This document shows positions 7,798 to 45,561 of a stretch of DNA of 64,000 nucleotides, piece by piece. The stretch covers positions 18,664-82,663 of the forward strand of contig JAJRXX010000005.1 in the NCBI GenBank assembly GCA_024276075.1, given 5' to 3'. Made by a program: the position numbers and the translations under genes. The notes under the pieces are model-generated. The model was not told the DNA's origin, did not search any database, and worked only from the letters and a program-made list of their open reading frames with translations. Numbering within the stretch: the first letter of the stretch is position 1; each line of letters starts with the position of its first letter. Origin of the DNA: Planctomycetota bacterium. GTDB taxonomy: Bacteria; Planctomycetota; Phycisphaerae; Phycisphaerales; Phycisphaeraceae.

Positions 7798-9114
7798 GTG
7801 ATTTGCGTGGATCATTTTGAGTACCGTGACGGCGAGTTGTGGTGCGAGGGCGTCGACTTGACCGAACTGGCCGGCCGCGTGGGCACACCACTCTACGTCT
7901 ACTCGCGGCGGACACTAGAAGACCACTACGACCGTCTGGTTAAAGCCTTCGCACAACTCGACCCTCTGATCTGCTACTCGATCAAGAGCTGCGGGAACGT
8001 GAACCTCTGCCGCATCCTCGCGGGTCGGGGCGCGGGCATGGATGTAGTTAGCGGAGGCGAACTGTTCCGGGCGCAGCAAGCGGGCGTACGTATGGACAAG
8101 ATCGTCTACGCCGGCGTGGGCAAGACCGACGCCGAGATCCGCGACGCCATCACCGCCAAGATCGGGTGGTTTAATATCGAATCCGAAGCGGAGTTTGAAA
8201 ACATCGCTTCGATCGCAAAACAGATGGGCGCGCAGGTACGAGCGGCACTACGAATCAACCCAGACGTAGACCCCAAGACACACGCTAAAACCACCACGGG
8301 TAAAAAGGAAACCAAATTCGGCGTCGACATCGAACGCGCCCGACGATTCTTCGAACGATACGGACAAGACGAACACGCCCTGCTCCGGGCTGTGCACCTG
8401 CACATCGGGTCGCCGGTCTACAGCCCCGAGCCTTACGTACAAGCGATCGACAAGGCACTGACGCTGATCGAAAAGCTCCGCCACCAGGACTACCAGATCG
8501 ACGCGATCGACATCGGTGGCGGATTCGGCGCCGACTACGAATCAGGCCAATCGCCTTCCTTCGCGGATTACGCCTCCGAGATTGTGCCCACGCTCAAAAA
8601 ATTCCACGACGACGGCGGGCAGGTCATACTCGAGCCCGGCAGGACAATCGCCGCCAACGCAGGTGTACTGCTCACACGTGTGCAATACATCAAAATGGGT
8701 GGTTCCAAAAAATTTGTCATCATTGACAGCGGCATGCACCACCTCATCAGGCCTACGCTATACGATTCATTCCACTTTATTTGGCCCACGAAAGTCGCGC
8801 CCATGCACCAACCCGACAAAGGTCAGCGTCGGCTGGAAATGGACCTGCCGGGCCTTGAGCCCTGCGAAGTGGTGGGACCCGTCTGCGAAAGCGGCGACTA
8901 CCTCGCAAAGGCCCGCCGTCTACCACCCGTGGCCAGGGGGGACGTCCTGTGCGTCTTCAGCGCGGGCGCCTATGGCATGGTCATGGCCAGCAACTACAAC
9001 GCGTTCCCTCGCCCTGCCGAGGTACTCATCAACGACAAGCGCGTCACCCAGATCCGCCGCCGCGAGACATACCAGGACCTCGTCGCCGGCGAGCTTGAGC
9101 CGACCGAGTTGTGA
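7798..9114 (+). CDS. lysA: diaminopimelate decarboxylase
   Basis: 438 aa; GTPLYVYS, YSIKSCGN (PLP Lys region), GGGFG and CESGD motifs of fold-III PLP decarboxylases in the LysA layout. Confidence 0.9.
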   Translation: MICVDHFEYRDGELWCEGVDLTELAGRVGTPLYVYSRRTLEDHYDRLVKAFAQLDPLICYSIKSCGNVNLCRILAGRGAGMDVVSGGELFRAQQAGVRMDKIVYAGVGKTDAEIRDAITAKIGWFNIESEAEFENIASIAKQMGAQVRAALRINPDVDPKTHAKTTTGKKETKFGVDIERARRFFERYGQDEHALLRAVHLHIGSPVYSPEPYVQAIDKALTLIEKLRHQDYQIDAIDIGGGFGADYESGQSPSFADYASEIVPTLKKFHDDGGQVILEPGRTIAANAGVLLTRVQYIKMGGSKKFVIIDSGMHHLIRPTLYDSFHFIWPTKVAPMHQPDKGQRRLEMDLPGLEPCEVVGPVCESGDYLAKARRLPPVARGDVLCVFSAGAYGMVMASNYNAFPRPAEVLINDKRVTQIRRRETYQDLVAGELEPTEL

Positions 9115-9166
9115 CGCCGGGCCTTCACAGCCCAAGAGGCTCCGTTGAAACCCTGCTCAAGGGTGC

Positions 9167-9189
9167 CACTGGCGGCTCGTCCGCCAGTG
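9167..9189 (+). terminator. perfect 9-bp hairpin downstream of lysA (possible terminator, no clear U-run)
   Basis: cactggcgg-ctcgt-ccgccagtg, about 50 nt after the lysA stop; followed by cttggttg rather than a T tract. Confidence 0.3.
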
Positions 9190-9328
9190 CTTGGTTGACT
9201 CATTCCCGTAACGACGTGTATTTCTCGCCAACAAGCACCGCCACCCAAGCAAGGGTTTCAGCAGAGCCAATCCAAGGCAGTAGAATGCAAACCGCCGACG
9301 CCACAGGCCAACCGCATCAGTCTCACCC

Positions 9329-10408
9329 ATGGCAAAGGAACGTATCATCTCGAGCCACGCCGCGGACGAGCGCGAGGAACTGCTCAACCTCTCACTGCGC
9401 CCCCAGCACATGGCCGATTACATCGGCCAGTCAAAGCTCGTCGAAAAACTACTGATTACGCTACAAGCTGTGAAGGAACGCAGCGAACCCATGGAGCACG
9501 TCCTATTGCACGGGCCGCCTGGTCTGGGCAAAACTACGCTCGCGCACATCATCGCAAACGAGATGGGCACGCACCTGACCGTGACCTCTGGCCCCGCGCT
9601 GGTGCGACCGACCGACCTGGTAGGCACCCTCACCAAGCTACAAGAAGGCGACGTCCTGTTCATCGACGAGATACACAGGCTCAGCCCTATCGTCGAGGAG
9701 TACATCTACCCCGCTATGGAGGATTTTAAGATCGACGTCACCGTCGACTCCGGCATGCACGCACGCACCATCACGCTACCCGTCAAGCCCTTCACGCTCA
9801 TCGGCGCCACCACACGCGCTGGGCTGCTCTCCGGGCCCATGCGGTCCAGGTTCGGCGTCTCACACAGCTTCGAATACTACAGCAGAGAGGAACTACTCGA
9901 AATCCTACGCCGAAGCGCGTCGCTGTTGAAAATGGGTGGCGTCAGTGCCGGCAAAAGCGGCGACGGCCTCCAAATCGAGAGCCTCCAATCGCTGGAAATG
10001 ATCGCGTCACGAGCGCGAGGCACGCCCCGTGTCGCCAACCGGCTGCTACGACGTGTACGCGACTTCGCACAGGTACGCGCCAGCGGACGCATGACACCGG
10101 ACGTCGTCGATGTATCGCTTCGGCTCGAAGGCGTCGACGACTTGGGCCTCGACGAACTCGACCGGAAGTACCTCTCCATCATCGGCCAGGTCTACAACGG
10201 CGGGCCCGTAGGACTCGAAGCCATCGCCGCCACACTGGGCGAGGATTCGGGCACACTCGAAGAGGTCGTCGAGCCGTACCTGTTGCAGGTCGGCTTCCTC
10301 GCACGCACCCGCAAGGGACGACAGCTCACCACCGCAGCAGCAGCGCACGTCGGCATCACCCTCAAACCCAACGAACAAAATAACGACGGGCTGTTCGAGG
10401 ACGAGTGA
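9329..10408 (+). CDS. ruvB: Holliday junction branch migration DNA helicase RuvB
   Basis: LRPQHMADYIGQ, Walker A HGPPGLGKTTLA, FIDEIHRL Walker B; length 359 aa. Confidence 0.95.
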   Translation: MAKERIISSHAADEREELLNLSLRPQHMADYIGQSKLVEKLLITLQAVKERSEPMEHVLLHGPPGLGKTTLAHIIANEMGTHLTVTSGPALVRPTDLVGTLTKLQEGDVLFIDEIHRLSPIVEEYIYPAMEDFKIDVTVDSGMHARTITLPVKPFTLIGATTRAGLLSGPMRSRFGVSHSFEYYSREELLEILRRSASLLKMGGVSAGKSGDGLQIESLQSLEMIASRARGTPRVANRLLRRVRDFAQVRASGRMTPDVVDVSLRLEGVDDLGLDELDRKYLSIIGQVYNGGPVGLEAIAATLGEDSGTLEEVVEPYLLQVGFLARTRKGRQLTTAAAAHVGITLKPNEQNNDGLFEDE

Positions 10409-19278: not shown

Positions 19279-19644
19279 TCACGCCGCGTCGGCAGCACCC
19301 TCCTGATCCTCAGGCACGGCTTCTTTCACAATCTCAGCACCGTCATTCGACAACGGTACCGACGAATCCGCTTCCTCCAAGACCTCCACGCGGGTGTATG
19401 GATCGAGGTTGCACACGACGATCTCGCCGTCGTCTTTGCGCACCGTCAGACGATCCAGCCAGAGTTTGTGATCCTTAGCATGAGCGTACCACGACCCGGT
19501 CTTCCGCTGCTCGTAACGCTCCACGCTGCCGGCGACTCGCGTAGACCAGACCCCCTCACCATGCGGGATCTGCTGGATCACGATCACCCGCTGACCCGGC
19601 CGGTAGCGGTCCGTTGTTTTAGACACGGTTAGCCCTTTCACCAA
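19279..19644 (-). CDS. hypothetical protein with acidic C-terminal tail
   Basis: 121 aa ORF with coding-like composition; no motif recognised. Confidence 0.45.
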   Translation of the reverse strand: MVKGLTVSKTTDRYRPGQRVIVIQQIPHGEGVWSTRVAGSVERYEQRKTGSWYAHAKDHKLWLDRLTVRKDDGEIVVCNLDPYTRVEVLEEADSSVPLSNDGAEIVKEAVPEDQEGAADAA

Positions 19645-19804
19645 TCAGCAAAACAATATCTCAAATCGCCGTCACATAAAAGCGCAAACCCTCTACACCC
19701 CATCGGTCCACGTTGCCATCCGATCAAGCACGCGGTTTGACAGCCTAGAATCCGTGTGCCAGGATAATTTTCGCATACCCGTCTCGCCGATGAAATAAAC
19801 ACCA

Positions 19805-19892
19805 GGAGAGGTGTCCGAGCGGTTTAAGGAGCCGGTCTCGAAAACCGGTGTGCGGCTTTGCCGTACCGTGGGTTCGAATCCCACCCTCTCCG
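19805..19892 (+). tRNA. tRNA-Ser (anticodon CGA)
   Basis: ggagagg acceptor pairing with cctctcc+g, anticodon arm ccggt-ctCGAaa-accgg, long variable arm, T-loop gttcgaatc; 88 nt, no encoded CCA. Confidence 0.9.
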
Positions 19893-19971
19893 TTTACCAG
19901 CGCAAGCGAAGCTTGCCAATAGTCTAACGCGGGGTGGGATGAGAACACACCGCACCGCGATAGCGGGGCCT

Positions 19972-20028
19972 CGTGGGTTCGCTCCTCCGGCTCCGTGCCC
20001 CAGGCACGCAATCCCACCCTCTCCGTTT
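19972..20028 (+). other. disrupted duplicate of the tRNA-Ser 3' end (att-like remnant)
   Basis: cgtgggttcg (19972-19981) plus aatcccaccctctccgttt (20010-20028) together equal tRNA positions 19867-19895, split here by a 28-nt insert. Confidence 0.8.
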
Positions 20029-20094
20029 CGATATTTTAAGCTCCCACGCAAACAATATCGCTTTGCATGGATTGATCAAAATCTCCGCACAACA

Positions 20095-21648
20095 TCACCT
20101 TTTGCCCTTCGTCCTACGGCTCACCTGAAATGACGACGTGGCTAACGTTTCCCAATTATCAATCTTTGTTTTACGCTTATCCCGAGACAGCGTAGCAATC
20201 GCGGCGTCTTCGTAATACGAATCATTGTTGAAATGTGTCGTAGACACCTCTTCAAAAATAGCGCCGTCTAGCGTGTGAAACTTGTGCCAAACGCCTGGGG
20301 AGACGGTGATGATGTCGCCTGGCTGCAACTTTGAACGGTGGCCGTCTAGCTCGATTTCAAGGTCGCCGTGCAGCAGTTGGAAGGACTCTTCCTTCTTCTG
20401 GTGATGGTGATAGGGGTGTTTTTGGCGGGGTAGCTGGATGATTAGTTTTTTGCAATAGGAACGATTAATGCAGTCGACGATAACACACCCAAACTCGCGG
20501 AACCGTTCCAGGCCGTAGTGGTGCGAAACCTCAATCTTGCTCTTTGGGCTAACGGATAGCTTCGCGTCGTTTAGCATGGCCCGGGTCTGTAGAACGATTC
20601 GCGATAGCAGTTCTTGTTTTGAAGTATCCGTTTGAGCGATGGTCGAATCGATGGGCTCACCGGGCGCGTAATCACGATTGGCTGTCAGCCCCCGGCCCCA
20701 GTGGCTGGCGTCTAGCTGATGGTCCTGCAATGGCATGGCGAATTGGACGTTGTCGGTAAAAATTACCTGGCCTTTTTGGATAGGTGTCTTAGCCCAAACG
20801 CCACGCATCAAAGATTTGAGCGATAGCCGTTCTTCGGAACACCCCGGTGCCCGGTAATCGCCGCCACAGGCCTGCACAGCCCGTTTGTAGGCATTAAGCC
20901 AGTGGTCGATTTGTTCGGGCGTGGACGAATAACTGTTTAATTGGTATTGCTCGGTGGGCAATCCGACGTGGCGCTCGAACATGCGCGCGCCCAGTGCATA
21001 AGCGATCTGCACAGGTTCGGTGGCAGCGGGGTCTTCGTGTGTGGACCAGCCGATGGGAACACCGGGGTATCGCGATCGGAGCAGACGGATTTGGTTTAGG
21101 CTTAATTTATCGTTGGGCGTGGGGTACATCGCGACACAATGCATAATGCCAAAGGGCACGTTCCTGTGCTGGAAGTAGCTGACCAGGCGATCGATTTGGC
21201 TCAGCGCCAGGCCCGCGGTGGAAACGATAACGGGGCGGTTGGCTCTGGCAACACGCTCGACCAGGGGGCGGTCGGATGCGGAACAACTGGCAATCTTGAT
21301 GACCTGGATATCGAGGTCGAGCAGGTGATCGACAGATGTTTCGTCGAAGGGCGTACAGATAGTGGTCATGCCGGCGTCGCGGACGACTTGGGTCATCTTG
21401 GCGTAGTCATCCAGGCTCAGCCTCGTGCTGATAAAACGAGGGATGTGCTTGACGTCGTTTCGGTTTTTGTAATCAGGATGGATGAGGGTATCGAGGTGCC
21501 GGAACTGGAATTTCAGGCCGGCGCGGACGCGGTGCTTGTGCGCAGCTTTGGCGATATGATCGATAATGGCCAGGCCGTGCTTTAGATCGCCTTGATGGTT
21601 GTTGGCGAGATCGAAAACAAATAGACCTTCAAAATCAAACGCTTGCAT
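20095..21648 (-). CDS. NeuB-family ulosonic-acid synthase fused to a SAF domain and a C-terminal lyxose-isomerase-like cupin
   Basis: FVFDLANNHQGD, IKIASCSASD and GWSTHE (NeuB/PseI/LegI family); RGVWAKTPIQKGQVIF (SAF-like); HPYHHHQKKEESFQLLHGDLEIELDG...PGVWHKFH...FEEVST (cupin, D-lyxose/mannose isomerase-like). ATG at 21648; the track ORF starts at TTG 21660. Confidence 0.75.
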   Translation of the reverse strand: MQAFDFEGLFVFDLANNHQGDLKHGLAIIDHIAKAAHKHRVRAGLKFQFRHLDTLIHPDYKNRNDVKHIPRFISTRLSLDDYAKMTQVVRDAGMTTICTPFDETSVDHLLDLDIQVIKIASCSASDRPLVERVARANRPVIVSTAGLALSQIDRLVSYFQHRNVPFGIMHCVAMYPTPNDKLSLNQIRLLRSRYPGVPIGWSTHEDPAATEPVQIAYALGARMFERHVGLPTEQYQLNSYSSTPEQIDHWLNAYKRAVQACGGDYRAPGCSEERLSLKSLMRGVWAKTPIQKGQVIFTDNVQFAMPLQDHQLDASHWGRGLTANRDYAPGEPIDSTIAQTDTSKQELLSRIVLQTRAMLNDAKLSVSPKSKIEVSHHYGLERFREFGCVIVDCINRSYCKKLIIQLPRQKHPYHHHQKKEESFQLLHGDLEIELDGHRSKLQPGDIITVSPGVWHKFHTLDGAIFEEVSTTHFNNDSYYEDAAIATLSRDKRKTKIDNWETLATSSFQVSRRTKGKR

Positions 21649-21690
21649 TGCCACAGACAACCTTTAATCAATACGTAGAGACGAACCTCG

Positions 21691-22470
21691 CTACAGTGAT
21701 TTTCCGATCTCATACACCCGCTCGGTGTGCTGATAGTATTGGCCCCGGTGTGTATTAACTTGGTCGGGTCGTTGACAGAGGTAGGCTACACGCGTCTTTG
21801 CCAACACCCTGCTTTGTCGGTAATGACAACTTGATTTTTGTATGTTCTCAAAGTCCACCATTTCGAGCCAAGACCGTATCGCGAGGCTGCTGGGCAGGTG
21901 CGTGACGTTATTCGACACGTGGTATTTTTTCTTGTTGTCTTGTGAGGGTGGGTGCAGTATCTGAACGCAATTTTGGTTTCGAAGCAACGGCTCACGTGTG
22001 GTAGCAGATTCGATGACGAACCAGCCCCGCGGTTTTAGCAAATCGAATAGGCGTTTAATCATCCTCAGCTGTTCGGGATTGTGGTACAGGACGCCTGTGC
22101 ACCAGATGACATCGAATGACGATTCCTCAAACAAGCGGTCATACATCACGTTGGCTGTGTGGTATACGATTTGGGTGCGTGATTGGCCTAGCTTCTTGAG
22201 CCAACGCTGATTCGATTTTTCTTTGTCTTTTAGGTCGACGAGGTCCAGCCGCGCGGGCTTGAGCGTTAGCAGACGCTCTGTGTCCTGCCCGTCTTTTGGC
22301 CCGATCTCTAAAAACCTGCGGCCAGAGTCGCACTCGCCCATGAGTAGCCTAAGCTCTTCAAACAATGACTGCCGATAGTCTTGCCCGGTAACACCTGGGT
22401 GCAACCGATCCAGCGCAATCACGACGTTGGTTCTGAACGGCCGTTTGAGGATATTTGCTAAATGAGCCAT
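21691..22470 (-). CDS. class I SAM-dependent methyltransferase
   Basis: RFLEIGPKDGQDTERL (motif I-like), VIWCTGVLYH, LKPRGWFVIE. Confidence 0.7.
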   Translation of the reverse strand: MAHLANILKRPFRTNVVIALDRLHPGVTGQDYRQSLFEELRLLMGECDSGRRFLEIGPKDGQDTERLLTLKPARLDLVDLKDKEKSNQRWLKKLGQSRTQIVYHTANVMYDRLFEESSFDVIWCTGVLYHNPEQLRMIKRLFDLLKPRGWFVIESATTREPLLRNQNCVQILHPPSQDNKKKYHVSNNVTHLPSSLAIRSWLEMVDFENIQKSSCHYRQSRVLAKTRVAYLCQRPDQVNTHRGQYYQHTERVYEIGKSL

Positions 22471-22525
22471 GGTCCGGTGCGTCTCGGGTGTCGATTGATT
22501 GTCACTTTTTCACGACGAGGTGACG

Positions 22526-22645
22526 CTATGCTTTCTGTCCAATAAAGGTGTAGTGAAAATCACTGCCCTGACCTTCTCGATATCTGGCGTCGTAGTATCC
22601 AACGTGTACGTTCATGAACATACGAATTGGTGAAGCAGAACTCAT
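22526..22645 (-). CDS. possible 39-aa small ORF between the oxidoreductase and methyltransferase genes
   Basis: ATG at the complement of 22643-22645, 1 nt after the upstream stop codon (22647-22649): MSSASPIRMFMNVHVGYYDARYREGQGSDFHYTFIGQKA*. Below the ORF-track length cutoff; no homology evidence. Confidence 0.2.
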   Translation of the reverse strand: MSSASPIRMFMNVHVGYYDARYREGQGSDFHYTFIGQKA

Positions 22646-22646
22646 A

Positions 22647-23765
22647 TTATGGGCTTAAACATGCCTCTGCCACGTCTGTGATATTAGCGGGTGTGTAGGT
22701 GTGGCCGCGATGGACCTGGACCGTCTTGTTTACCTCGTTGGATTGATACGCAGCGGCTATGATGAGCATGGTGTCGAGGCCACGGTACAGGGAGACGGGT
22801 GAATCCTGCACAGCACCGCTTAGGATGTCGTGGACGTGTTGGACTTCACCTTTGAAGTCGTCGGGTCGGGACTTGGGAAAGAGTTTTTTGGTTGTAACCC
22901 CATCAACAGCGTGAATCACCGCGTCGTGGTTTGCGTCGTAGTTCACGTGCCACTCGAGTGACCCTTCAGACCCTTGGACCCGGAGGGTCTTGACAGGTGG
23001 CTGCGTGACGACGTCTTGTATGACGTATCCGATCAGGCCCGCGTCTGTTTTTAGGTGCAGTTGAGCGATGCGATCATATTGGGCGCCGTGGTCCTGGACG
23101 ACGTCCATCATGGCGTGCACCTGCGAGACGTGCCCGGCACCTAATGCGTGCGCGAAATGCTGCCAAATGTTGATCCCGTGGGAATGCTCACCGCAAGCAC
23201 CCCCGCCACGTGATGCATGGCCCAGGTAAGAGTCACTAGGCCCAGCCAACCAGGGGTGAGCTGCAAATATGCCGCCCCAGTGCTCGGTCCACCGAACGGC
23301 GATAGTCTGCGGCTGACCGAGGAGCCCGGTACTGAGGAGTTCCTGCGCGTAGAGCGTGTGCGGCGTGAGGACGTGGTTGTATCCCACACCGACGAATGCG
23401 CCAGCCGACTGCGCCTCTTCAAGGAGTTGATCGCAACCCTTGAGGGAAGGGTCGCAAGCGGGCTTTTCAATCATGACCACTCTGGGGCAATGAAGACGGA
23501 TCGCCTCTCGTGCGAGTGCGATGTGCGAGTCGGGTGGCGTGCCGATAAACACCGCATCGTAACGGCCTTGGGAGGCTTGCTCGGGCGTGGCGAGTTCGAT
23601 CGCGTCGTCCCATTGCCCGTAACGGGACGGATAGATCGAAGTGCGTGTGCGGTCCAGGGCCCCGGGATCGGTATCACAGATCAGAACACCCCATCCCCGG
23701 CATCGACACGCGTGGGCCAAATGATTGCCGATCGAGCCGGCACCGTAGATTTTGACTTTGTACAT
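22647..23765 (-). CDS. Gfo/Idh/MocA-family NAD(P)-dependent sugar oxidoreductase
   Basis: MYKVKIYGAGSIGNHLA Rossmann start, VFIGTPPDSH, VMIEKP motif. Start trimmed to ATG 23765. Confidence 0.75.
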   Translation of the reverse strand: MYKVKIYGAGSIGNHLAHACRCRGWGVLICDTDPGALDRTRTSIYPSRYGQWDDAIELATPEQASQGRYDAVFIGTPPDSHIALAREAIRLHCPRVVMIEKPACDPSLKGCDQLLEEAQSAGAFVGVGYNHVLTPHTLYAQELLSTGLLGQPQTIAVRWTEHWGGIFAAHPWLAGPSDSYLGHASRGGGACGEHSHGINIWQHFAHALGAGHVSQVHAMMDVVQDHGAQYDRIAQLHLKTDAGLIGYVIQDVVTQPPVKTLRVQGSEGSLEWHVNYDANHDAVIHAVDGVTTKKLFPKSRPDDFKGEVQHVHDILSGAVQDSPVSLYRGLDTMLIIAAAYQSNEVNKTVQVHRGHTYTPANITDVAEACLSP

Positions 23766-23949
23766 GGATGGGGTCCCGATCGAGAAAAGCTGAAACGGTC
23801 TTATCAAAGCCAGAGGCAATCATCAAATTCACGGACAACCGCATATATACGTAAATTACTTCAAATGACGATGATACGGACATTCCCCTGATCGCCGATG
23901 CGTATGACCTCTGGTCGGACCGATCAACTAAGCCTATTTTGTGTTGTAT

Positions 23950-24660
23950 ATGAAAATCGGCTTTCTTTCATCGATCAAGAGCCCGCTTCTGGGGTATTAC
24001 CTTCGCGGGTTTTTCGACCGTGGCGTGCCAGTCGAAGCGGTGCTGCTGGATGAAAAGACATTTTCCGCTAAGGAGGAGGGACTCTTCCAGGAGCGTACAC
24101 GTGGGCAGTGGTGTGTGGAGACGCTTTATGATCTCGAAAAATTGGCGGTTCCATTTTACTTTGTGAAGGACCACAACGGTGACGCATGTATCGATTTGAT
24201 CAAACGGCTCGGGCTTGATTTGCTTGTCAATGCGACGACGCTACGGATCCTAAAGCACCCGGTGCTTGATGCTGCCCCGCGGGGTGTGTTGAATTGCCAC
24301 CCTGGCATGCTGCCGGGGTATCGCGGGTGCACGTGTGTGGAGTGGGCGATCTATGAAGACCAGCCCGTCGGGAATACAGCACATTTTATGTCACCCGGGA
24401 TCGACGAAGGGCCTATCGTGTACCAGGAGAGCATTCGGTTTTCCAAACAGGACGACTACCATGCGGTCCGCCTGAAGGTGTATCGCCAAAGCTTGGGTGT
24501 ATTGGTCAAAGCGGTGCGTCGGATCGAGCGTGAAAACTTAACGTGTGCAAACACGCCCGCGCAAGCCCAGGGGCGGTACTACCGGGTGATCGACGACAAG
24601 AAACTACACACGGTGAAAGACAAGTTGAAAACGGGTTCGTACACCTATCAAGGTGACTAG
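23950..24660 (+). CDS. sugar N-formyltransferase-like protein (Formyl_trans_N fold)
   Basis: LNCHPGMLPGYRGC corresponds to the HxSLLPxxRG motif of Fmt/PurN-type formyltransferases, followed by GIDEGPIV. An alternative GTG start lies at 23941. Confidence 0.65.
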   Translation: MKIGFLSSIKSPLLGYYLRGFFDRGVPVEAVLLDEKTFSAKEEGLFQERTRGQWCVETLYDLEKLAVPFYFVKDHNGDACIDLIKRLGLDLLVNATTLRILKHPVLDAAPRGVLNCHPGMLPGYRGCTCVEWAIYEDQPVGNTAHFMSPGIDEGPIVYQESIRFSKQDDYHAVRLKVYRQSLGVLVKAVRRIERENLTCANTPAQAQGRYYRVIDDKKLHTVKDKLKTGSYTYQGD

Positions 24661-24680: not shown

Positions 24681-26294
24681 ATGACGCTAAGTATCCAACG
24701 AGTTAAGCGTATTGTCCGTCAAATCGACCCCCGGATTCGATACCGCATCGAGCGAGACCGCCGAATCCGATCGGCTTACGACGCCAAGCTCGATCAACTG
24801 GGACGAGCATCCAAGCAGCGATTCGAGGGGACGATCTTGGTCGACGGGAAGTGGGATAACCCCCACTACTGGTTTCGATATGCGCTGCTGCGTGCTGGGT
24901 TGGGCTTATCACACGGAAAGGAGGTGGGCCTACTCGGAGCCCACCGACGCCGCGAACAAACCCGGACGATGAAGCAACTGGGCTTTGCGGACGTCGTTGA
25001 TCTGCAACGGTACAAACCGAACCGTAAAATCAAAAATCTAGCTGACCGACTCATTGAAACAATCGGATCGCCGGACGATATCCTTCGGCTCAACCTTCCA
25101 TACGAGTTCCCCGCAGGCACGTTCTACGACTGTATTCTTAAGCAGCAGCGCCAAGCGTTTGTGCAGATCGATCACCCCGAGTTTCGGAATGCGTTGATTG
25201 AATACCTTGTGAGTCTTGAAGCCGCAGACGACCTACTAAAAAAACATCGCCCTAGACTCGTGGTCTCGAGCCACGCGATAGGCTCCCACGCATGCCTCGT
25301 CTGGCTAGCGCTGCGGCACGGCATCCCCACAATTATCCCGTTTGGTGACGTAGGCATCTCTCGGTTTTGGCGACCTCAAAGCAACGGAGAGTTCTTCGAC
25401 TTTTTTGACCGGGTAACGTGGGAAGAATATCTATCACTCTCGAAGACGCGACAGTCAACGGCACAACAAACGGGCAGCGCCTATTTGATAAAGCGTTTTG
25501 GTGGAGACCTATCAAATCTGGGCGCGCATTATGCGTATAAAAAACGGGAGCGTCGATTTGACCGAGAGACAGCGTGTCGGCAATTCGGCTGGGACTTGGA
25601 TCGGCCGATCATCACGGTCTACGCATCAAACTGGTTTGACTTCCCGCACTCAACGGGGATGAAGGGGTTTCGTGATTATTACGACTGGATGCTCGAAACG
25701 ATCGGTGTTGCTCGAAAACGGATGGACATTAATTGGTTATTCAAAAGCCATCCCTTGAACGAGTGGTACGGGGGCCTCACCCTGGAAGACGCGGTGGGAC
25801 CCCTGGACTCGCAACACATCCGCATGGCAGACACTAGCTGGAATGGCCTATCGATGCTCCAAGGCGTCGATGGGATCGTGACGTTTCAAGGCACAATCGG
25901 GGTAGAAGCCCCAGCGATGGGCACGCCTGTGCTGACTGCGCAGCGGGGTTGGTACGGGGACTGGCAATTCGTCACCGCTGCTGACGATCGGGATTCGTAC
26001 CTAGAGAAGTTGCGTACAAATTGGTGGGAGCAATCGCCTACCCAACAGGAAGAACGGAAACGGCGTGCCCTGGCGTTTGCGTGCTTATACTGGGCACGTC
26101 CCGAATGGCAAGACGGTTTTTTGCTGCGGGACGATAGCGAGCAATGGTCGCTGTATGGACCAGTGATGGATCTGATAGATCGCTGCCCCGGGCAAATCGA
26201 CCGTGAAATCGATCTAATCGGGCAGTGGTACGACTCGGAGCATGGACACTTCCATGCATACAAGATGCTCCGAACGTCAAAGTGGATTGTCTAG
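24681..26294 (+). CDS. KpsS/KpsC-like (Capsule_synth-type) putative ulosonic-acid glycosyltransferase
   Basis: 537 aa. LFKSHPLNEW and DGIVTFQGTIGVEAPAMGTPVLTA resemble the HP and TinStvGlEAl..GkPV signatures of capsule beta-Kdo transferases. From memory only. Confidence 0.4.
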   Translation: MTLSIQRVKRIVRQIDPRIRYRIERDRRIRSAYDAKLDQLGRASKQRFEGTILVDGKWDNPHYWFRYALLRAGLGLSHGKEVGLLGAHRRREQTRTMKQLGFADVVDLQRYKPNRKIKNLADRLIETIGSPDDILRLNLPYEFPAGTFYDCILKQQRQAFVQIDHPEFRNALIEYLVSLEAADDLLKKHRPRLVVSSHAIGSHACLVWLALRHGIPTIIPFGDVGISRFWRPQSNGEFFDFFDRVTWEEYLSLSKTRQSTAQQTGSAYLIKRFGGDLSNLGAHYAYKKRERRFDRETACRQFGWDLDRPIITVYASNWFDFPHSTGMKGFRDYYDWMLETIGVARKRMDINWLFKSHPLNEWYGGLTLEDAVGPLDSQHIRMADTSWNGLSMLQGVDGIVTFQGTIGVEAPAMGTPVLTAQRGWYGDWQFVTAADDRDSYLEKLRTNWWEQSPTQQEERKRRALAFACLYWARPEWQDGFLLRDDSEQWSLYGPVMDLIDRCPGQIDREIDLIGQWYDSEHGHFHAYKMLRTSKWIV

Positions 26295-28496: not shown

Positions 28497-29546
28497 CTAT
28501 TGACACAAGTCCCAAGCCATGGGCGTGCCTCTTTTGACTTCACGAGTCGCTTTCTTGCCCAGGATTTGGTGCAGGTGCTTGGGGGGCAGCCCGTAACCAG
28601 GGCGTATCGAGCGGAGATTCTCCTCGGTAAAGGTTTCTCCAGCGAGCACGTCCTGCACGACGAACAATGACCTGCGAAAGACCCTGCTTGGCTCTTCTTG
28701 CTGCGACGGGCTTAGCTCGGTTGTGCCGAGTGCTTTTTCGGTTTCACGGACGGCTTGGACCATGTCCTTGAATTCGCCCGGTTCAAGGGAAAATGGCGAA
28801 TCGGGTCCAGGGTCGTCACGGGACAGGGTCAAATGCTTTTCAATGATGCTCCCGCCTAATGCGACGGACGCAATCGCCGCGGCCAGGCCCATGGTGTGAT
28901 CCGATAAGCCCGCGACGGCGTCAAACCGCTCAGCGAGATACGGAATCGCGTGGAGGTTCATCGATCGCGGGTCAGCGGGGTAGGCACTGGTGCACTTGAG
29001 CAGCGCAAGGTGGGGACAGCCCGACTGGCGCAGCGCGTCGACAGCTTCTTGGACCTCTTGTTCGTCGGCCATCCCGGTAGAAAGAATGACGGGCTTCTTG
29101 GTCTGCCCGATCAACCGCAACAGAGACACATCGACGAGCTCAAAGGACGCCACCTTGTAAGCGGGCACGTTTAGCCCCTCTAAGAACGCCACTGCGGAAG
29201 CATCGAAAGGGGTCGAAAAGCAGTCGATGCCGATGTCTCGTGCGAGGTCCATCAGCTTTGGCTGCCACTGCCAAGGGGTATATGCCTCGCTGTATAACTG
29301 GTATAGATTCTTGCCCTCCCAGATGGTGCCCTTGCCTATTCGGAAGTGCTCATTGTCACAATCGATGGTCATGGTATCGGGCGTGTAGGTTTGTAGTTTG
29401 ACAGCATCGGCGCCGGCGTCCTTGGCGGCGTGGACGAGCTGCACAGCTTGCTCGAAGTCCTGGTGATGGTTAGCAGATAGCTCGGCGATGATGTAAACGG
29501 GTTGACCTTGCCCGATTAAGCGTTGGTTAATTGAAAAAGGGGACAT
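28497..29546 (-). CDS. pseI: pseudaminic acid synthase, PseI
   Basis: YIIAELSANHHQDFEQA, DAVKLQTY, canonical NeuB-family length with a C-terminal SAF domain. Start at ATG 29546 (MSPFSIN). Confidence 0.9.
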   Translation of the reverse strand: MSPFSINQRLIGQGQPVYIIAELSANHHQDFEQAVQLVHAAKDAGADAVKLQTYTPDTMTIDCDNEHFRIGKGTIWEGKNLYQLYSEAYTPWQWQPKLMDLARDIGIDCFSTPFDASAVAFLEGLNVPAYKVASFELVDVSLLRLIGQTKKPVILSTGMADEQEVQEAVDALRQSGCPHLALLKCTSAYPADPRSMNLHAIPYLAERFDAVAGLSDHTMGLAAAIASVALGGSIIEKHLTLSRDDPGPDSPFSLEPGEFKDMVQAVRETEKALGTTELSPSQQEEPSRVFRRSLFVVQDVLAGETFTEENLRSIRPGYGLPPKHLHQILGKKATREVKRGTPMAWDLCQ

Positions 29547-29647: not shown

Positions 29648-30328
29648 CTACCGCACCTGACGCACAACGGTGAACGCCTCGGCCGCCTCTACACCCGCCT
29701 GTGACCCGCGCCACGCTGCCAGCGATCGCAGCGATTCGGGTGAACGGGGGTGCGGGGACGGTCGTGATTCGGATTCATAGGTTTGCATAGCCTGAATTTT
29801 TACGTCCAGTGTCTGGGTGATATCCACAAACCGCTGGGGCGCAAAAGCAGGTGCGAATTGTCCAAAAGACCATTCAGTGGATGACGCGACTTCGTAGCTG
29901 TAGACCGATTTGACGGTGCCCCCTGCTGTAGGACGTGTGGCGGTGAGCGTGGCACGGAAGGTCGCTACATGGTCGACATTCAGGTCTCCCCCGTGCTGGG
30001 TGTAGACCGTGTCAGGCCCGAGACGATCAATCAACGATTCGATTTCCTTGACGATATCGAGCAACGCAACGGTATCGAAACGGTTGTCGGGCAGTTGGTG
30101 CATGAAAAGGTCGGCTGCACCTAAAAGCTTTGCCGCCTGATGTGCGTGTTCGTGGAGTTTTTTGAGTTGAGGCTGATGAGATTGATCGGGCGCAGCTGCG
30201 CGAGACGTGATGCCTTCGCCGAGGATGGCGATGTAGACTGCGGTGCCCTGCTGCGCCAAACGGGCGATGGTACCCCCGCAGCCTAGGACTTCGTCATCGG
30301 GGTGTGAAGCGATCACGAGGACACTCAT
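29648..30328 (-). CDS. PIG-L/LmbE-family N-deacetylase
   Basis: VLVIASHPDDEVLGCGGTIA motif. ATGA 4-nt overlap with the upstream formyltransferase-like gene. Confidence 0.85.
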   Translation of the reverse strand: MSVLVIASHPDDEVLGCGGTIARLAQQGTAVYIAILGEGITSRAAAPDQSHQPQLKKLHEHAHQAAKLLGAADLFMHQLPDNRFDTVALLDIVKEIESLIDRLGPDTVYTQHGGDLNVDHVATFRATLTATRPTAGGTVKSVYSYEVASSTEWSFGQFAPAFAPQRFVDITQTLDVKIQAMQTYESESRPSPHPRSPESLRSLAAWRGSQAGVEAAEAFTVVRQVR

Positions 30329-31056
30329 GGTTTCTGATCCTTGATGGGCTCGATGGTGACGTCAGCGTGGATTTTACTGCCATCGAGTGCTGCGTTTTGA
30401 AACGTGAAACGGTAGCCGTGGTGCTCGAAGTAGGCGTGGGGATAGGTCTCAGCGTCGAGCATACGGATAAAATCATAGAGCGATTCGGGCGATCCCGTAT
30501 CGGCGATGCGGCTGTCGGCGGGGGTTCGCCGTGAAAAGTGCGTGGGCGGGCCCTCTTGCGGGGTCGGGGTCGGGTGTGTGTCGATGATCTTGCGGATCAT
30601 CTGGGCGGCGGTCTCGGTGGCACGCTTGTAAATATCCTCTGCTCGACCCGCCAGCGACAGAGGCGATTTTGCATAAATAGGGCCTGCATCCATTTCTTCG
30701 ACCATCCTGAGAGCTGAGAGCATGGTCTGCTTGTGCCCGCGAAGGATCAGGTTCTGAAGCGGGCTGCCCCCTCGACCAAAGGGCAGGTCGGTCATGTGGA
30801 AACAGACACACTCGTAGGCATCGACGAGGTGCTGCTCGACCCGCCAAGACCAGTGCAAAAAGAACAAGTAGCGCGGGTGGATCGAATCAACATAATCGTG
30901 GGTGAGCGTGACGGGATCATCGGCGTAGTGCCATCGGCCTGGGAAGGCCCTGATGGTGCTCTCGAAGATTTCCCTGCACCAGGGTTTGCAGCCAGCCACG
31001 ATGTACGCGGGGTCAGTCATTTCGTCAGGGTCGCTGTACGGCGTGTTCAGGATCAA
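30325..31056 (-). CDS. formyltransferase-fold protein (Fmt-like, Pse-cluster associated)
   Basis: FHMTDLPFGRGGSPLQNLI matches the HxSLLPxxRG..P region; MVEEMDAGPIYA. TTG start at 31056 or ATG at 31020. Confidence 0.65.
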   Translation of the reverse strand: MILNTPYSDPDEMTDPAYIVAGCKPWCREIFESTIRAFPGRWHYADDPVTLTHDYVDSIHPRYLFFLHWSWRVEQHLVDAYECVCFHMTDLPFGRGGSPLQNLILRGHKQTMLSALRMVEEMDAGPIYAKSPLSLAGRAEDIYKRATETAAQMIRKIIDTHPTPTPQEGPPTHFSRRTPADSRIADTGSPESLYDFIRMLDAETYPHAYFEHHGYRFTFQNAALDGSKIHADVTIEPIKDQKP

Positions 31057-32738: not shown

Positions 32739-33434
32739 ATGAACATCGCGATCATACTTGCCCGGGGCGGTAGCAAACGCATACCCAGGAAGAATATAAA
32801 GCTGTTCTCGGGTAGGCCCATCATCGAATACCCGATCATGACAGCGAAACGCAGCGGCCTATTCGATCGGGTCATCGTCTCAACGGATGACACCGAGATC
32901 GCTCAGGTAGCTGCTGCTGCCGGTGCGGAGGTCCCGTTCGAGCGTCCCGCGGCATTGGCGGATGATTATACGCCCACAGCAGACGTCGTTGCCCACGCAA
33001 TCAAGACCCTCAACAAGGCCGGCCCGACGATCAAACATGCCTGCTGTATCTACGCGACGACCCCTTTCTTAAAAGAACAGTATCTTCGAGAAGGGTTCCA
33101 GACCCTCACAACCACCGATGCGGGCTGTGTCTTTTCCGTGACCACTTTTGACTTCCCGATATACCGTGCGTTGAAAATCGATAGCGAGGGACAAGTCGGC
33201 ATGGTTTGGCCCGAGCACGAACTGACGCGATCGAATGACCTATCGGCTGCGTACCACGACGCGGGGCAGTTTTACTGGGTGAAGGCATCGACGTTTTTGC
33301 AAACACCTCGGCTATACAGCCCGGGGGCACGAGCGGTGATCATCCCGCGTTACCTCGCTCAGGACATCGACACACCCGAAGACTGGGAAACAGCCCAAAG
33401 GCTGTACGCCGCCAATCAATGCGTAGATTCGTAG
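32739..33434 (+). CDS. pseF: pseudaminic acid cytidylyltransferase, PseF
   Basis: NIAIILARGGSKRIPRKNIKLFSGRPII, CMP-sugar synthetase (NeuA/PseF) fold, 231 aa. Confidence 0.9.
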   Translation: MNIAIILARGGSKRIPRKNIKLFSGRPIIEYPIMTAKRSGLFDRVIVSTDDTEIAQVAAAAGAEVPFERPAALADDYTPTADVVAHAIKTLNKAGPTIKHACCIYATTPFLKEQYLREGFQTLTTTDAGCVFSVTTFDFPIYRALKIDSEGQVGMVWPEHELTRSNDLSAAYHDAGQFYWVKASTFLQTPRLYSPGARAVIIPRYLAQDIDTPEDWETAQRLYAANQCVDS

Positions 33435-33648
33435 CCCTACGTTTCTGCAGGCGTTAGGTGGAAACAAGTCTAGACAACGGAACTGGCGTTTGCGGCAAGT
33501 TCGCCCCCGGGTAACACTCGATGGGGTTGACGATTACGTGCTGACCAACCGCTTGTTTAAGGCGCTTTACCCCACCGATTTGGCCTTTACCTGCGCTGAC
33601 ATGTCATGTATCGACGCCAACACCCCGATCGACTCAAGATCAACGCCC

Positions 33649-34656
33649 ATGTACAACAGCGTGGTTATGAATCAAGCAAACCCCATGCGGGCGATCGTCA
33701 TTGGGCTGGGTCGCATCGGCCTGCTCTACGACGCCCAGCTTGACCCCGATAGCGATTGGGTCTTGACGCACACCCGTGCGTGCATGACACATCCAAGCAT
33801 TTATTTAGTAGGTGGCGTGGACCCGGACGCCCAGCGGCGCGAAACGTTCAGCCGAGTGACGGGGCAAACGGCGTTCGCTTCGGTCGCACAAGCCGTCTCG
33901 TCGGTCAAGGAGGCAGACATCGTCATCATCGCAACCCCCACGGGACTTCGTGAGATGGTCATTGCGTCGTGTTGGCAGTTGAATCCGAAACTAGTGCTGA
34001 TAGAAAAACCCCTCGCCACGACACTCGAAGAAGCCCAGCGAATTGTTCAGGCATGCGAAGAGAAAAACGTACAATTAGCGGTCAATTATCAGCGTCGGTT
34101 TGATCCAGCGTTCCAAGAGCTAAGGCAGTTTTTGCGGGAGGGGCAAATCGGCCAACTGTGTGGTGGATACTGCTATTACACTGGTGACGCCTTAAATCAC
34201 GCTTCACACTTCGTTGACTTGATGATCTATCTAATAGGAAAACCGCTTAGCGTTGAATGTATCCCGGGGCACAGCAGCGAATACGGACATTCTTTCCTGT
34301 GTCGGTATGAACGTGCCAGCATCTATTTCATCCCCCTCGACACAGAATACGGCATGGCGGAAATGGATTTATTGTTTGAACACACGAGGGTTCGGCTGGA
34401 GAATTACAGCAGAAATATCCAGGTATACCGCCCCGAAGAAGACTCCATCTTTGCAGGCCACCAGCGACTAGGGCCTAACCAAGACGTATTGACGATACCG
34501 GATAGCACGCGGTATCAATACCAGGTAATCGACGGCCTGCTAAAAAATATGGCACGATCAGAACAGCCCGTATCTAATGGAGTAACCGCAATGGCGACAT
34601 TGGCGTGTTGCCTGAAAGGGACCCATGCCACGCAGGGTGTTTATTGTCAGCCATGA
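33649..34656 (+). CDS. Gfo/Idh/MocA-family oxidoreductase
   Basis: MRAIVIGLGRIGLLYD Rossmann region, VIIATPT, VLIEKPLA. The track ORF begins at TTG 33490; ATG 33649 or 33667 is more plausible. Confidence 0.7.
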   Translation: MYNSVVMNQANPMRAIVIGLGRIGLLYDAQLDPDSDWVLTHTRACMTHPSIYLVGGVDPDAQRRETFSRVTGQTAFASVAQAVSSVKEADIVIIATPTGLREMVIASCWQLNPKLVLIEKPLATTLEEAQRIVQACEEKNVQLAVNYQRRFDPAFQELRQFLREGQIGQLCGGYCYYTGDALNHASHFVDLMIYLIGKPLSVECIPGHSSEYGHSFLCRYERASIYFIPLDTEYGMAEMDLLFEHTRVRLENYSRNIQVYRPEEDSIFAGHQRLGPNQDVLTIPDSTRYQYQVIDGLLKNMARSEQPVSNGVTAMATLACCLKGTHATQGVYCQP

Positions 34657-35566: not shown

Positions 35567-35582
35567 AACTGGTTTCATAACT

Positions 35583-35603: not shown

Positions 35604-35655
35604 CAGGGGGAGGGTAGAGTGTCCGTGATTAACGAGGCTTTCACCCCTCACCCAA

Positions 35656-45487: not shown

Positions 45488-45561
<74 letters not shown>

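Follow-up and report, generated by a model that had tools for sequence, protein, structure and literature searches.

A widespread fusion of a NeuB-family synthase to a D-lyxose/mannose-type isomerase domain, normally encoded in a four-gene module with a proposed role in making an activated acidic sugar

Introduction

Why would a synthase of the NeuB family, which condenses a sugar with phosphoenolpyruvate (PEP), carry a sugar isomerase at its C terminus? The question is raised by one open reading frame on a contig of a Planctomycetota bacterium (JAJRXX010000005.1), of which we analyzed a stretch of 64,000 nucleotides, here referred to as “the window.” The original prediction, made from the letters of this stretch, read the frame as a NeuB-type synthase joined to a cupin resembling D-lyxose isomerases, and proposed that the isomerase supplies the aldose for a PEP condensation. 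To our knowledge, there is no earlier NeuB-family enzyme with a built-in substrate-generating domain, and the only characterized bacterial route to Kdn is that of Bacteroides (cited in PMC6200933). Searches of the literature on NeuB, sialic acid synthase, or nonulosonic together with cupin, on lyxose isomerase together with neuraminate synthase, and on TIGR04396 found nothing relevant on the fused architecture, and a phylogeny of NulO synthases (PMC8208679) contains no mention of a cupin or a fusion. Mass-spectrometric surveys find ulosonic acids of the Kdn/Neu type to be about as frequent as those of the Pse/Leg types (PMC8157484). Here, we report that the fusion is widespread and unstudied and that it is normally part of a module of four genes, probably devoted to an activated acidic sugar, of which the window holds a truncated version.

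A NeuB-type synthase and a complete isomerase fold in one protein

In the single protein encoded by the gene (Table 1), a NeuB-type synthase is followed by a complete isomerase of the D-lyxose/mannose type. All motifs quoted in the original prediction are present in its translation. We favor the ATG start over an alternative TTG at 21660 because homologues begin with MxxFDF and an AAAGG lies ~12 nt upstream. The short C-terminal tail arises from a CAG in the window at the site where relatives have their stop codon (TAG in locus L088, described below). A promoter and terminator scan of positions 19600-24100 found nothing above shuffled expectation.

In the N-terminal part, Pfam NeuB (PF03102) matches residues 45-262 (E = 1.3e-37; 130 bits, cut-off 22.1), and Foldseek returned 3g8r, 2wqp, and 8h2c, each at a probability of 1.00. 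Among solved structures, 3g8r is the closest (E = 1e-94), and NeuB and PseI come next. The metal ligands His204 and His227 align with H215 and H236 of Neisseria meningitidis NeuB (NmNeuB), and the PEP-site residues K46, K118, S121, S143, and S202 align with K53, K129, S132, S154, and S213 of that enzyme; all are invariant in 36 homologues. As judged from AF2 and Foldseek, a disordered linker (residues 263-275) leads to a SAF-like segment, which reaches 18.8 bits against Pfam SAF at 283-333, under the cut-off of 21, and in which the conserved SAF arginine (NmNeuB R314; “vlRPg” in SpsE) is replaced throughout the fusion family by an invariant Met305 (alignment to 1vli). Scores against the NCBIfam equivalog models fall far short of their cut-offs for both NeuB (TIGR03569; 128 versus 399.65) and PseI (TIGR03586; 120 versus 340.25).

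The C-terminal part gives both isomerase and cupin matches above cut-off, namely, Pfam Lyx_isomer (PF07385; 31.4 bits versus 20.8) and Cupin_2 at 407-459 (E = 1.6e-9), while the equivalog model for D-lyxose/D-mannose isomerase (NF051472) is not reached (19.2 versus a cut-off of 350). Foldseek covered the whole of the D-lyxose isomerase 2y0o (164 of 171 columns; rmsd, 1.8 Å; TM, 0.71) and also matched 7nzq, a D-lyxose isomerase with mannose bound. Profile scanning and structure prediction (Pfam, AF2, and Foldseek) upheld both domain identities, with NeuB, Cupin_2, and Lyx_isomer above their cut-offs and the isomerase fold matched whole. The boundaries first drawn were slightly off: the cupin of 130 aa is a domain of ~165 aa (338-500), whose first helix spans residues 344-361.

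Judged against the active-site residues listed for the Thermofilum enzyme (TsLI; PMC8378251), the domain retains the metal-binding and catalytic residues. Seven of the eight TsLI residues are matched by family-invariant ones (K401, H414, H416, K419, E421, H455, and E467, equivalent to TsLI K62, H75, H77, K86, E88, H143, and E156), so that the His-His-Glu-His manganese site, the catalytic Lys, and the second Glu are all kept. At the position aligned with TsLI D163 (474), the family varies between Asn and Asp, and an invariant Asp476 lies two residues downstream. Around the site are extra invariant basic residues that are absent from the lyxose isomerases: K400, K410, H411, K456, H458, and R492-K493. 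The AF2 model of the whole protein has a pLDDT of 83 and a pTM of 0.53, a value at which neither the relative placement of the two catalytic domains nor channelling between them can be read from the model. Enzymes of the NeuB type form domain-swapped dimers.

Table 1. Features of the fusion gene and its surroundings, in window coordinates
Feature	Position	Strand	Basis or remark
Fusion gene, 517 aa (NeuB-family PEP-condensing synthase, SAF-like segment, D-lyxose-isomerase-type cupin domain)	20095..21648	-	ORF, Pfam, homologues, AF2, Foldseek
NeuB TIM-barrel domain, aa 8-262	20863..21627	-	Alignments to NmNeuB, SpsE, and 3g8r; invariant columns
Degenerate SAF/AFP-like segment, aa ~276-337	20638..20823	-	Sub-cut-off Pfam SAF; alignment to 1vli
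D-lyxose/mannose-isomerase-type domain, aa 338-500	20149..20637	-	Foldseek to 2y0o and 7nzq; profile alignment to 7nzo
C-terminal tail, 10 aa (QVSRRTKGKR), and stop codon	20095..20127	-	DNA and protein alignments
Class I SAM methyltransferase, between Gfo gene and fusion gene	21691..22470	-	Pfam Methyltransf_23/12/11
Gfo/Idh/MocA NAD-dependent oxidoreductase, 372 aa from ATG	22647..23765	-	Pfam; GAGSIG and EKP motifs
tRNA-Ser(CGA)	19805..19892	+	ARAGORN; far edge of the stretch missing in the window
PseI	28497-29546		NCBIfam PseI
PseF	32739-33434		

The fusion across bacterial phyla

The same fused, full-length architecture is found in 120/120 of the best homologues, and end-to-end fusion recurs in at least 96 of the best 150 clusters at 50% identity, down to 33% identity. 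Relatives occur in at least 352 species-level genomes from many phyla, with carriers among Desulfobacterota, Bdellovibrionota, anammox Planctomycetota, Verrucomicrobiota, Hyphomicrobiales, Bacillota, and Actinomycetota; the nearest in species genomes are Desulfobacterota MAGs at ~63% identity. The original prediction would have lost its point had the architecture been both common and already assigned a function. Common it is, but no assigned function was found, and databases name these proteins only “N-acetylneuraminate synthase family protein.” Within the fusion protein, mean pairwise identity is highest in the isomerase domain (0.73 to 0.80, versus 0.67 for NeuB) and conservation is lowest in the SAF-like part.

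We give virtually no credence to the idea that two separate genes have been joined artificially, by misassembly or a frameshift. The gene is seen split in a few public contigs, but these cases are themselves frameshifts (the break in L089 lies within the SAF region, and many genes of L090 and L091 are fragmented), and the same continuous ORF of ~505 aa is present in hundreds of independent assemblies from many phyla. Conservation from end to end in hundreds of homologues excludes chance or misassembly as the origin of the fusion.

Stand-alone relatives of each half were also sought. A profile search for separate isomerase genes of this clade returned many short proteins, most of which lie on ~1-kb contigs and look like fragments, and three candidates inspected on long contigs (L089, L090, and L091) proved to be pieces of frameshifted fusion genes within the same cassette; the search and inspection together yielded no convincing stand-alone member of the isomerase clade. 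Of the representatives that seemed to have NeuB alone, P0288 is truncated where its contig stops; P0339 and P0368 are truly unfused and lie in other gene contexts.

Relation to characterized synthases and isomerases

The fusion family has in common with N. meningitidis NeuB (1xuu) and Campylobacter jejuni PseI (8h2c) the TIM barrel, the two-His metal site, the PEP Lys and Ser residues, the SAF-like segment, and association with a CMP-transferase. Compared with NeuB, PseI, and LegI, however, the protein is only 23 to 25% identical, has the invariant Met in place of the SAF Arg, carries an entire appended isomerase domain, and is partnered by Gfo and HAD genes, not by UDP-sugar-modifying enzymes. 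It further departs from NmNeuB (in the numbering of the latter) at E134 to S, N184 to A, and D247 to N. The structure 3g8r, from Chromobacterium violaceum, falls within the NeuB sub-clade of the fusion proteins (E = 1.4e-94 across residues 8-321 of the query) and likewise lacks the SAF Arg. It is a structural genomics entry named “putative spore coat polysaccharide biosynthesis protein E,” with function unassigned, and at 350 aa it has no isomerase domain; such unfused proteins make up the smaller part of the clade and occur in other contexts (L093 and L094).

With the D-lyxose/D-mannose isomerases Bacillus subtilis YdaE (2y0o), Thermofilum TsLI (7nzo-q), and Escherichia coli Z5688 (3kmh), the fusion domain shares the whole fold, the His/His/Glu/His metal site, and the catalytic Lys and Glu. 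It is 21 to 24% identical to them and is set apart by a short HxH-to-KxE spacing, the extra invariant basic residues, and a conserved RKT tail. The isomerase in the fusion is presumably biosynthetic rather than catabolic. In gene logic, the cassette resembles the Kdn systems of Bacteroides thetaiotaomicron (BT1714 synthase, BT1713 phosphatase, and CMP-Kdn synthetase) and Prymnesium parvum, in which there are likewise no amino-sugar steps; their Kdn-9-P synthases, however, are not fused to an isomerase, and no Gfo partner is described.

A conserved cassette and a candidate pathway

Across 80 genomes, the cassette has the order Gfo/Idh/MocA oxidoreductase, fusion gene, HAD phosphatase, and cytidylyltransferase, all adjacent and on the same strand. 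The most constant partner is the Gfo orthologue, directly upstream of the fusion gene in 73 to 74 of the 80 loci, followed by the HAD phosphatase (70/80) and the CMP-NeuAc-synthetase-like cytidylyltransferase (67/80); a TIGR04396-like surface-carbohydrate protein is encoded in 48/80. One carrier of the full cassette is Desulfofustis glycolicus DSM 9705 (locus L030). The conserved core of these 80 loci contains no aminotransferase, acetyltransferase, or NeuC-like gene. With respect to the carbon number of the acid, the cytidylyltransferase is nearer to CMP-Neu5Ac synthetases (E = 3e-24; nearest PDB match) than to KdsB (E = 1e-6). The HAD protein is of the capped HAD_2 type and has only a weak match, to the uncharacterized phosphatase 2ah5. 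For the Gfo protein, sequence matches in the PDB are weak, and although the AF2 model has a pLDDT of 93.6, Foldseek returned many sugar dehydrogenases of the Gfo family at equal similarity; matches this generic assign no substrate.

On balance, and by a modest measure, we favor a bifunctional enzyme of a large uncharacterized clade of the NeuB superfamily, in which the isomerase would feed the NeuB domain in a phosphorylated route to a Kdn-like acid. Our data establish the two domain identities, the conserved catalytic residues, the breadth of the fusion, and the cassette itself; how the steps are ordered, that the substrate is phosphorylated, and which sugar is involved we infer from the cassette as it is conserved elsewhere. 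The metal-dependent cupin domain would turn a 2-ketose, most likely a ketose phosphate (for example, fructose-6-P to mannose-6-P), into a 2,3-cis (“manno/lyxo”) aldose, which the NeuB barrel would condense with PEP at its two-histidine metal site to a 3-deoxy-2-ulosonic acid (phosphate). The HAD phosphatase would then take off the phosphate, the cytidylyltransferase would activate the acid, and the TIGR04396/BFO_1060-like protein would transfer it to a surface glycan, with the Gfo/Idh/MocA oxidoreductase either preparing the sugar or tailoring the product by oxidation or epimerization. There is precedent in B. thetaiotaomicron and Prymnesium, where Man-6-P and PEP give Kdn-9-P, followed by a phosphatase and a CMP-Kdn synthetase (PMC6200933).

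The presence of the HAD phosphatase points to this phosphorylated route rather than to free hexoses. The same chemistry could instead run on free sugars, if the HAD enzyme first dephosphorylated the ketose phosphate, the isomerase then acted on the free ketose (for example, fructose to mannose), and the NeuB domain made an unphosphorylated acid as NeuB, PseI, and LegI do. All characterized D-lyxose isomerases do take free sugars, not sugar phosphates (PMC8378251), which counts against the phosphorylated route; bacterial NeuB-type synthases normally use unphosphorylated aldoses (PMC6200933), and some cassettes consist of Gfo, fusion, and cytidylyltransferase genes with no HAD gene (L039 and L042). 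We nevertheless regard free sugars as unlikely, in that the HAD gene directly follows the synthase gene, as in pathways of the synthase-then-phosphatase kind, and the extra invariant basic residues at the isomerase site could bind phosphate.

Still less probable, in our judgment, is that the cupin domain does not feed the synthase at all, and instead acts in tailoring, together with Gfo, by ketol isomerization or epimerization of an oxidized intermediate or of the product, or serves as a sugar-binding lid that replaces the function of SAF. Such roles would fit the loss of the SAF Arg and the weak conservation of the SAF part, the constancy of the Gfo partner, and the inclusion among the structural neighbors of Gfo of YjhC (6o15) and RgNanOx (6z3b), members of the Gfo family whose action on sialic acids proceeds via a keto intermediate. 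These neighbors are unspecific, however, and the catalytic set of an aldose-ketose isomerase is invariant, including the Lys and Glu of enediol chemistry, whereas a purely structural lid would not require catalytic residues.

For the phosphorylated route with a feeding isomerase, the probable end product is a nonulosonic acid that resembles Kdn and contains no nitrogen, and that would often be modified further by O-methylation, sulfation, or carbamoylation. The aldose supply for a PEP condensation in the original prediction, and its Kdn-like acid, fit the gene context (the HAD phosphatase, the CMP-NeuAc-synthetase-like enzyme, and no amino-sugar enzymes). It overlooked the HAD gene and the constant Gfo partner, the latter of which makes it probable that the product is not plain Kdn. 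More tentatively, the module may make an undescribed CMP-activated ulosonic acid, either a Kdn isomer epimerized or oxidized by Gfo or a C10 acid from sedoheptulose-7-P via manno-heptose-7-P, with the isomerase handing the open-chain aldose to the synthase. Other points that sit uneasily with the main model are the role of Gfo, which it does not explain, the variable equivalent of TsLI D163, and the HAD subtype. The HAD_2 type of the cassette differs from the KdsC-like type of the Bacteroides Kdn-9-P phosphatase.

A truncated cassette in the window

In relatives, a synthase, a phosphatase, and a CMP-sialate-type cytidylyltransferase are encoded together; as a set they are absent from the window, which contains no HAD gene and no cassette-type cytidylyltransferase anywhere in its 64 kb. 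What remains of the cassette is the Gfo gene, the methyltransferase gene, and the fusion gene, which now adjoins the tRNA-Ser. The methyltransferase, a lineage-specific insert, probably O-methylates the product; other methyltransferases lie at or near the corresponding place in L004, L088, L095, L024, and L048. In L088, the closest relative, whose fusion protein is 79% identical and which has the same flanking synteny, ~6.7 kb that are missing from the window (blastn synteny) separate the fusion gene from the tRNA and hold the HAD gene, a methyltransferase, CTP_transf_3, a 258-aa gene, an ABC transporter, and a 467-aa gene.

Unless the resident PseF stands in or the genome encodes partners at another site, the pathway here is incomplete. 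Beside the cassette remnant, the window encodes a complete canonical pseudaminic acid pathway, and the canonical PseI foreseen as a separate gene scores 488 bits against the NCBIfam cut-off of 340. The further expectation that the organism makes a second ulosonic acid is weak: with the phosphatase, cytidylyltransferase, and exporter genes of the nearest relative missing, such an acid is doubtful here.

The gene in the window might then be an orphaned remnant, left by deletion of the downstream cassette and not yet degraded, that contributes nothing to a glycan. We consider this a serious but minority possibility. The absence of the six genes present in L088, the abutting tRNA-Ser, the missing phosphatase and cytidylyltransferase, and the mutated ancestral stop codon all speak for it. 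Against it, the ORF is intact and keeps every family-invariant residue; its 9 deviations at near-invariant columns are conservative and equal in number to those of the relative P0002; dN/dS relative to the closest relative is 0.06 overall and 0.03 in the isomerase domain; and the operon still has Gfo and the methyltransferase. Neither the near-invariant columns nor dN/dS gave any sign of decay in the fusion gene. Partners could also lie outside the window, and PseF might activate the product.

Significance

The significance for this organism is smaller than for the family, as the module is truncated here. For annotation, the warning is that genes of the fusion should not be counted as Neu5Ac synthases. 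The fusion matters for enzymology, where channelling of an acyclic aldose is at issue, and for chemoenzymatic synthesis of sialic acid analogues, and the module offers a defined set of genes, suitable for cloning, for what may be a self-contained pathway that starts from a central sugar phosphate and ends in a CMP-activated acidic sugar. If the module does make an undescribed acid, it would be a fourth major bacterial route of the nonulosonic type beside those to Neu5Ac, Pse, and Leg, and it could lie behind some of the signals of Kdn-type acids and of unassigned ulosonic acids with more carbons that environmental bacteria have yielded (PMC8157484; bioRxiv 10.64898/2026.04.20.719630).

Domain composition and active sites of the fusion protein

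The fusion gene encodes a protein in which a NeuB-type synthase, a SAF-like segment, and a D-lyxose/mannose-isomerase-type domain follow one another, and every motif quoted for it in the original prediction occurs in the 517-aa ORF. Its ATG start matches the N-terminus MxxFDF of homologues and has AAAGG about 12 nt upstream; a second possible start, TTG, lies 12 nt upstream of the ATG. Of the domains proposed from the sequence alone, Pfam recovers NeuB (residues 45-262, E = 1.3e-37), Lyx_isomer (31.4 bits versus a gathering score of 20.8), and Cupin_2 (residues 407-459, E = 1.6e-9), but not SAF, whose match (residues 283-333) is weak and below threshold. The protein scores 128 bits with the NCBIfam NeuB equivalog model (cutoff, 400) and 120 bits with that for PseI (cutoff, 340), and it fails the D-lyxose isomerase equivalog test. 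By these scores, it is a divergent superfamily member, neither a second NeuB nor a second PseI, and at the level of Pfam and fold it belongs to both superfamilies.

With 36 homologues as input, AlphaFold2 (AF2) yields a model of mean pLDDT 83 and pTM 0.53 in which residues 263-275 form a disordered linker; the single domains are well modeled, and their mutual placement is not. Searched against the PDB with Foldseek, the model falls into two parts. For the N-terminal ~335 residues, the leading match is 3g8r, a Chromobacterium violaceum “SpsE” of 350 aa that was solved by structural genomics and has not been assigned a function; NeuB, PseI, and SpsE come next. The C-terminal ~165 to 180 residues match whole D-lyxose isomerases, including 2y0o (164 of 171 columns, rmsd 1.8 Å, TM 0.71) and the Thermofilum enzyme TsLI (7nzo-q, mannose and fructose complexes included), so the second domain is a complete isomerase of ~165 aa rather than the bare cupin of 130 aa originally envisaged.

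The active site of the Thermofilum isomerase comprises K62, H75, H77, K86, E88, H143, E156, and D163 with Mn, and activity is lost when the counterparts of K86, E156, and D163 are mutated (PMC8378251). When the C-terminal domain of the family is aligned as a profile to 7nzo, the first seven correspond to invariant K401, H414, H416, K419, E421, H455, and E467; D163 aligns with a variable Asn/Asp at 474, two residues before an invariant Asp476. With this site in place, it seems improbable that the cupin serves in tailoring or as a lid. In the barrel, the metal ligands H204 and H227 and the phosphoenolpyruvate (PEP)-site residues K46, K118, S121, S143, and S202 align with their Neisseria meningitidis NeuB (NmNeuB) counterparts and are invariant. 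In contrast, NmNeuB E134, N184, and D247 are replaced by S123, A173, and N238, and the conserved SAF arginine (the R of SpsE “vlRPg”; NmNeuB R314) is replaced by an invariant Met305. These four NmNeuB positions presumably line the sugar site. From sequence and models, we predict that the protein combines the activities of a NeuB-type synthase and an isomerase of the lyxose/mannose type.

The fusion is widespread and conserved

The fusion is no product of a frameshift or misassembly, and the architecture is common. The best 120 matches among 5.8 billion proteins all share its Pfam architecture, with lengths of 502 to 544 aa and query coverage of 96 to 100%. A library clustered at 50% identity holds 308 representatives at E ≤ 1e-30; of the top 150, the match runs from end to end in 96, at identities down to 33%, and crosses the domain junction in 117. 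When each species was represented by a single genome, 352 genomes contained relatives. The 80 best-scoring are all full length and belong to Desulfobacterota, Bdellovibrionota, Planctomycetota (anammox), Verrucomicrobiota/Kiritimatiellia, Bacillota, Actinomycetota, Alpha- and Gammaproteobacteria, Bacteroidota, and Marinimicrobia. Conservation is highest in the isomerase domain (mean pairwise identity 0.73, core 0.80), lower in the barrel (0.67), and lowest in the SAF-like segment (0.57). Rough dN/dS values against the closest relative, with dS saturated, are 0.06 overall and 0.03 for the isomerase domain. The sequence record portrays a fusion that is real, old, and under selection.

A profile search also turned up short “stand-alone” isomerase proteins, most of which sit on ~1-kb contigs and resemble fragments. 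Three inspected on long contigs were parts of the fused gene broken up by frameshifts, within the same cassette; at one locus, L089, the frameshift falls within the SAF region. A minority of the clade is genuinely unfused (~340 to 355 aa, like 3g8r) and occurs in other contexts.

A conserved cassette and its proposed pathway

At 80 loci of relatives, tblastn with reference neighbors and, separately, unbiased clustering of every ORF up to 6.5 kb away agree on the same partners. A Gfo/Idh/MocA oxidoreductase (Gfo) lies directly upstream (73 to 74 of 80 loci), a HAD_2-type phosphatase directly downstream (70/80), and a CTP_transf_3 cytidylyltransferase of one clade next (67 to 68 of 80). A ~470-aa protein (48/80) and an ABC transporter (25/80) are also found nearby. 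The ~470-aa protein is an NCBIfam TIGR04396 “surface carbohydrate biosynthesis protein” resembling the BFO_1060 glycosyltransferase family. The cytidylyltransferase resembles CMP-Neu5Ac synthetases (6ifd, E = 3e-24) more closely than CMP-Kdo synthetases (E = 1e-6). Aminotransferase, N-acetyltransferase, NeuC-type epimerase, and 4,6-dehydratase genes are all absent from the conserved core. The neighbors that vary are O-decorating enzymes: sulfotransferases (L006, L091, L093), a carbamoyltransferase (L089), methyltransferases (the window, L004, L088, L024, L095), and kinase-like proteins (L001, L031, L034).

This anatomy fits a self-contained route that starts with a sugar phosphate of central metabolism and ends with a CMP-activated ulosonic acid free of nitrogen. 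The isomerase domain would convert a 2-ketose (phosphate) to a 2,3-cis aldose, most obviously fructose-6-P to mannose-6-P; the NeuB domain would condense the aldose with PEP, the HAD enzyme would remove the phosphate, the cytidylyltransferase would activate the acid, and the TIGR04396-like protein would transfer it. The scheme parallels the biochemically demonstrated Kdn-9-P route of Bacteroides thetaiotaomicron and Prymnesium parvum, in which Man-6-P and PEP give Kdn-9-P, Kdn, and then CMP-Kdn (PMC6200933). The domains, their intact catalytic residues, the fusion, and the cassette are established here, and from them we infer the step order, the phosphorylated substrate, and the hexose; an order of steps using free sugars is the less likely course, with a phosphatase so regularly adjacent.

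The cassette Gfo carries the GAGSIG and EKP motifs that mark active NAD enzymes, and AF2 models it with very high confidence (pLDDT 93.6). Its structural neighbors, numerous sugar dehydrogenases at equal distance, include two with sialic acid derivatives as substrates, YjhC and RgNanOx. Because Gfo may act either in preparing the ketose or in tailoring the product, a Kdn-like acid is expected rather than plain Kdn.

Some loci depart from this layout. In L044, from a Bdellovibrionales MAG, homologues of PseB, PseC, and PseF come immediately after Gfo and the fusion gene (8001-9491 and downstream), and a separate PseI is absent over 8 kb, so the fused synthase might serve a Pse-like pathway in some lineages. 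At L001-L003 and L020 (Thermodesulfobacteriota ORM2a, CP113000.1), a PLD-like protein, Gfo, the fusion gene, and a kinase-like (APH) protein occur in that order without HAD or cytidylyltransferase and adjoin acyl-AMP ligase, ACP, aminotransferase, and PEP-mutase genes, which hints at lipid- or phosphonate-linked use of the product.

The truncated cassette and its genomic setting

Features of the window
Feature	Position	Strand	Remark
tRNA-Ser (CGA)	19805-19892		
Fusion gene	20095-21648	-	517 aa, ATG start
Deacetylase/formyltransferase-like gene	23941-24660	+	Pse island
537-aa protein	24681-26294	+	glycosylation island
PseI	28497-29546		488 bits (NCBIfam)
Deacetylase/formyltransferase-like gene	29648-30328	-	Pse island
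Deacetylase/formyltransferase-like gene	30325-31056	-	Pse island
Second sugar-modifying module	33490-37902	+	downstream of PseF
Methyl-accepting chemotaxis protein	38292-40262		after the module
tRNA-Gly (TCC)	40579-40651		
tRNA-Ser (GCT)	43673-43765		
tRNA-Arg (CCT)	45487-45562		

The closest relative's locus, L088, encodes a protein 79% identical to the window's and shares the flanking PseC, PseB, 537-aa protein, formyltransferase, and Gfo. There, the fusion gene is followed by HAD, a methyltransferase, CTP_transf_3, a 258-aa gene, an ABC transporter, a 467-aa gene, and the same tRNA-Ser. In the window, this ~6.7 kb is absent: homology fades ~40 to 60 nt beyond the fusion gene, whose stop lies ~200 nt from the tRNA. 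The ancestral stop, TAG in L088 (9428-9430), is CAG in the window (20125-20127), which adds a 10-aa tail, QVSRRTKGKR. Neither HAD nor a cassette-type cytidylyltransferase is detectable anywhere in the 64-kb window, so the local pathway is incomplete if no partners are encoded beyond the window and PseF does not stand in for them. That the gene is an orphaned remnant in this genome is accordingly a sizeable possibility, even though every invariant residue is retained and deviations are not in excess. The proposed second ulosonic acid is therefore doubtful for this organism, while the idea stands at the level of the family.

The Gfo-fusion gene spacer is a hot spot of gene turnover. The window's methyltransferase gene is, in its 5' part (22253-22460), 65% identical to an apparently noncoding stretch just upstream of the L088 fusion gene (7634-7826), which looks like a remnant of the same gene, and L095 has yet another methyltransferase there.

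The separately encoded PseI is canonical, as are PseB, PseC, PseG (fused to GNAT), and PseF. The PIG-L-type deacetylase and two formyltransferase-like genes of this island suggest a Pse derivative with an N-formyl group or a free amine; a comparable pairing of deacetylase and formyltransferase has been described in a NulO cluster of Ca. Kuenenia (bioRxiv 10.64898/2026.04.20.719630). The 537-aa protein, with no match in Pfam or NCBIfam, lies between formyltransferase and PseB in L088 too and adjoins formyltransferase in L095; we regard it as a candidate for a new transferase within the glycosylation island. The second module holds another Gfo/Idh/MocA oxidoreductase, a 170-aa ORF without family, a DegT-type aminotransferase, and a methyltransferase. 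The island (about 20.1-37.9 kb; G+C 0.53 to 0.58, slightly below its flanks) ends on one side at tRNA-Ser (CGA), one of four tRNA genes in the window.

Implications

No paper in the literature searched describes the fusion or the cassette, and databases name the protein “N-acetylneuraminate synthase family protein.” Surveys record Kdn/Neu-type acids in prokaryotes about as often as Pse/Leg types, together with rare unassigned higher-carbon ulosonic acids (PMC8157484; bioRxiv 10.64898/2026.04.20.719630), which makes a widespread candidate pathway worth testing. The window itself holds only a truncated copy of the cassette. The idea is not radical and the function is predicted; the fusion family is an attractive and directly testable target.
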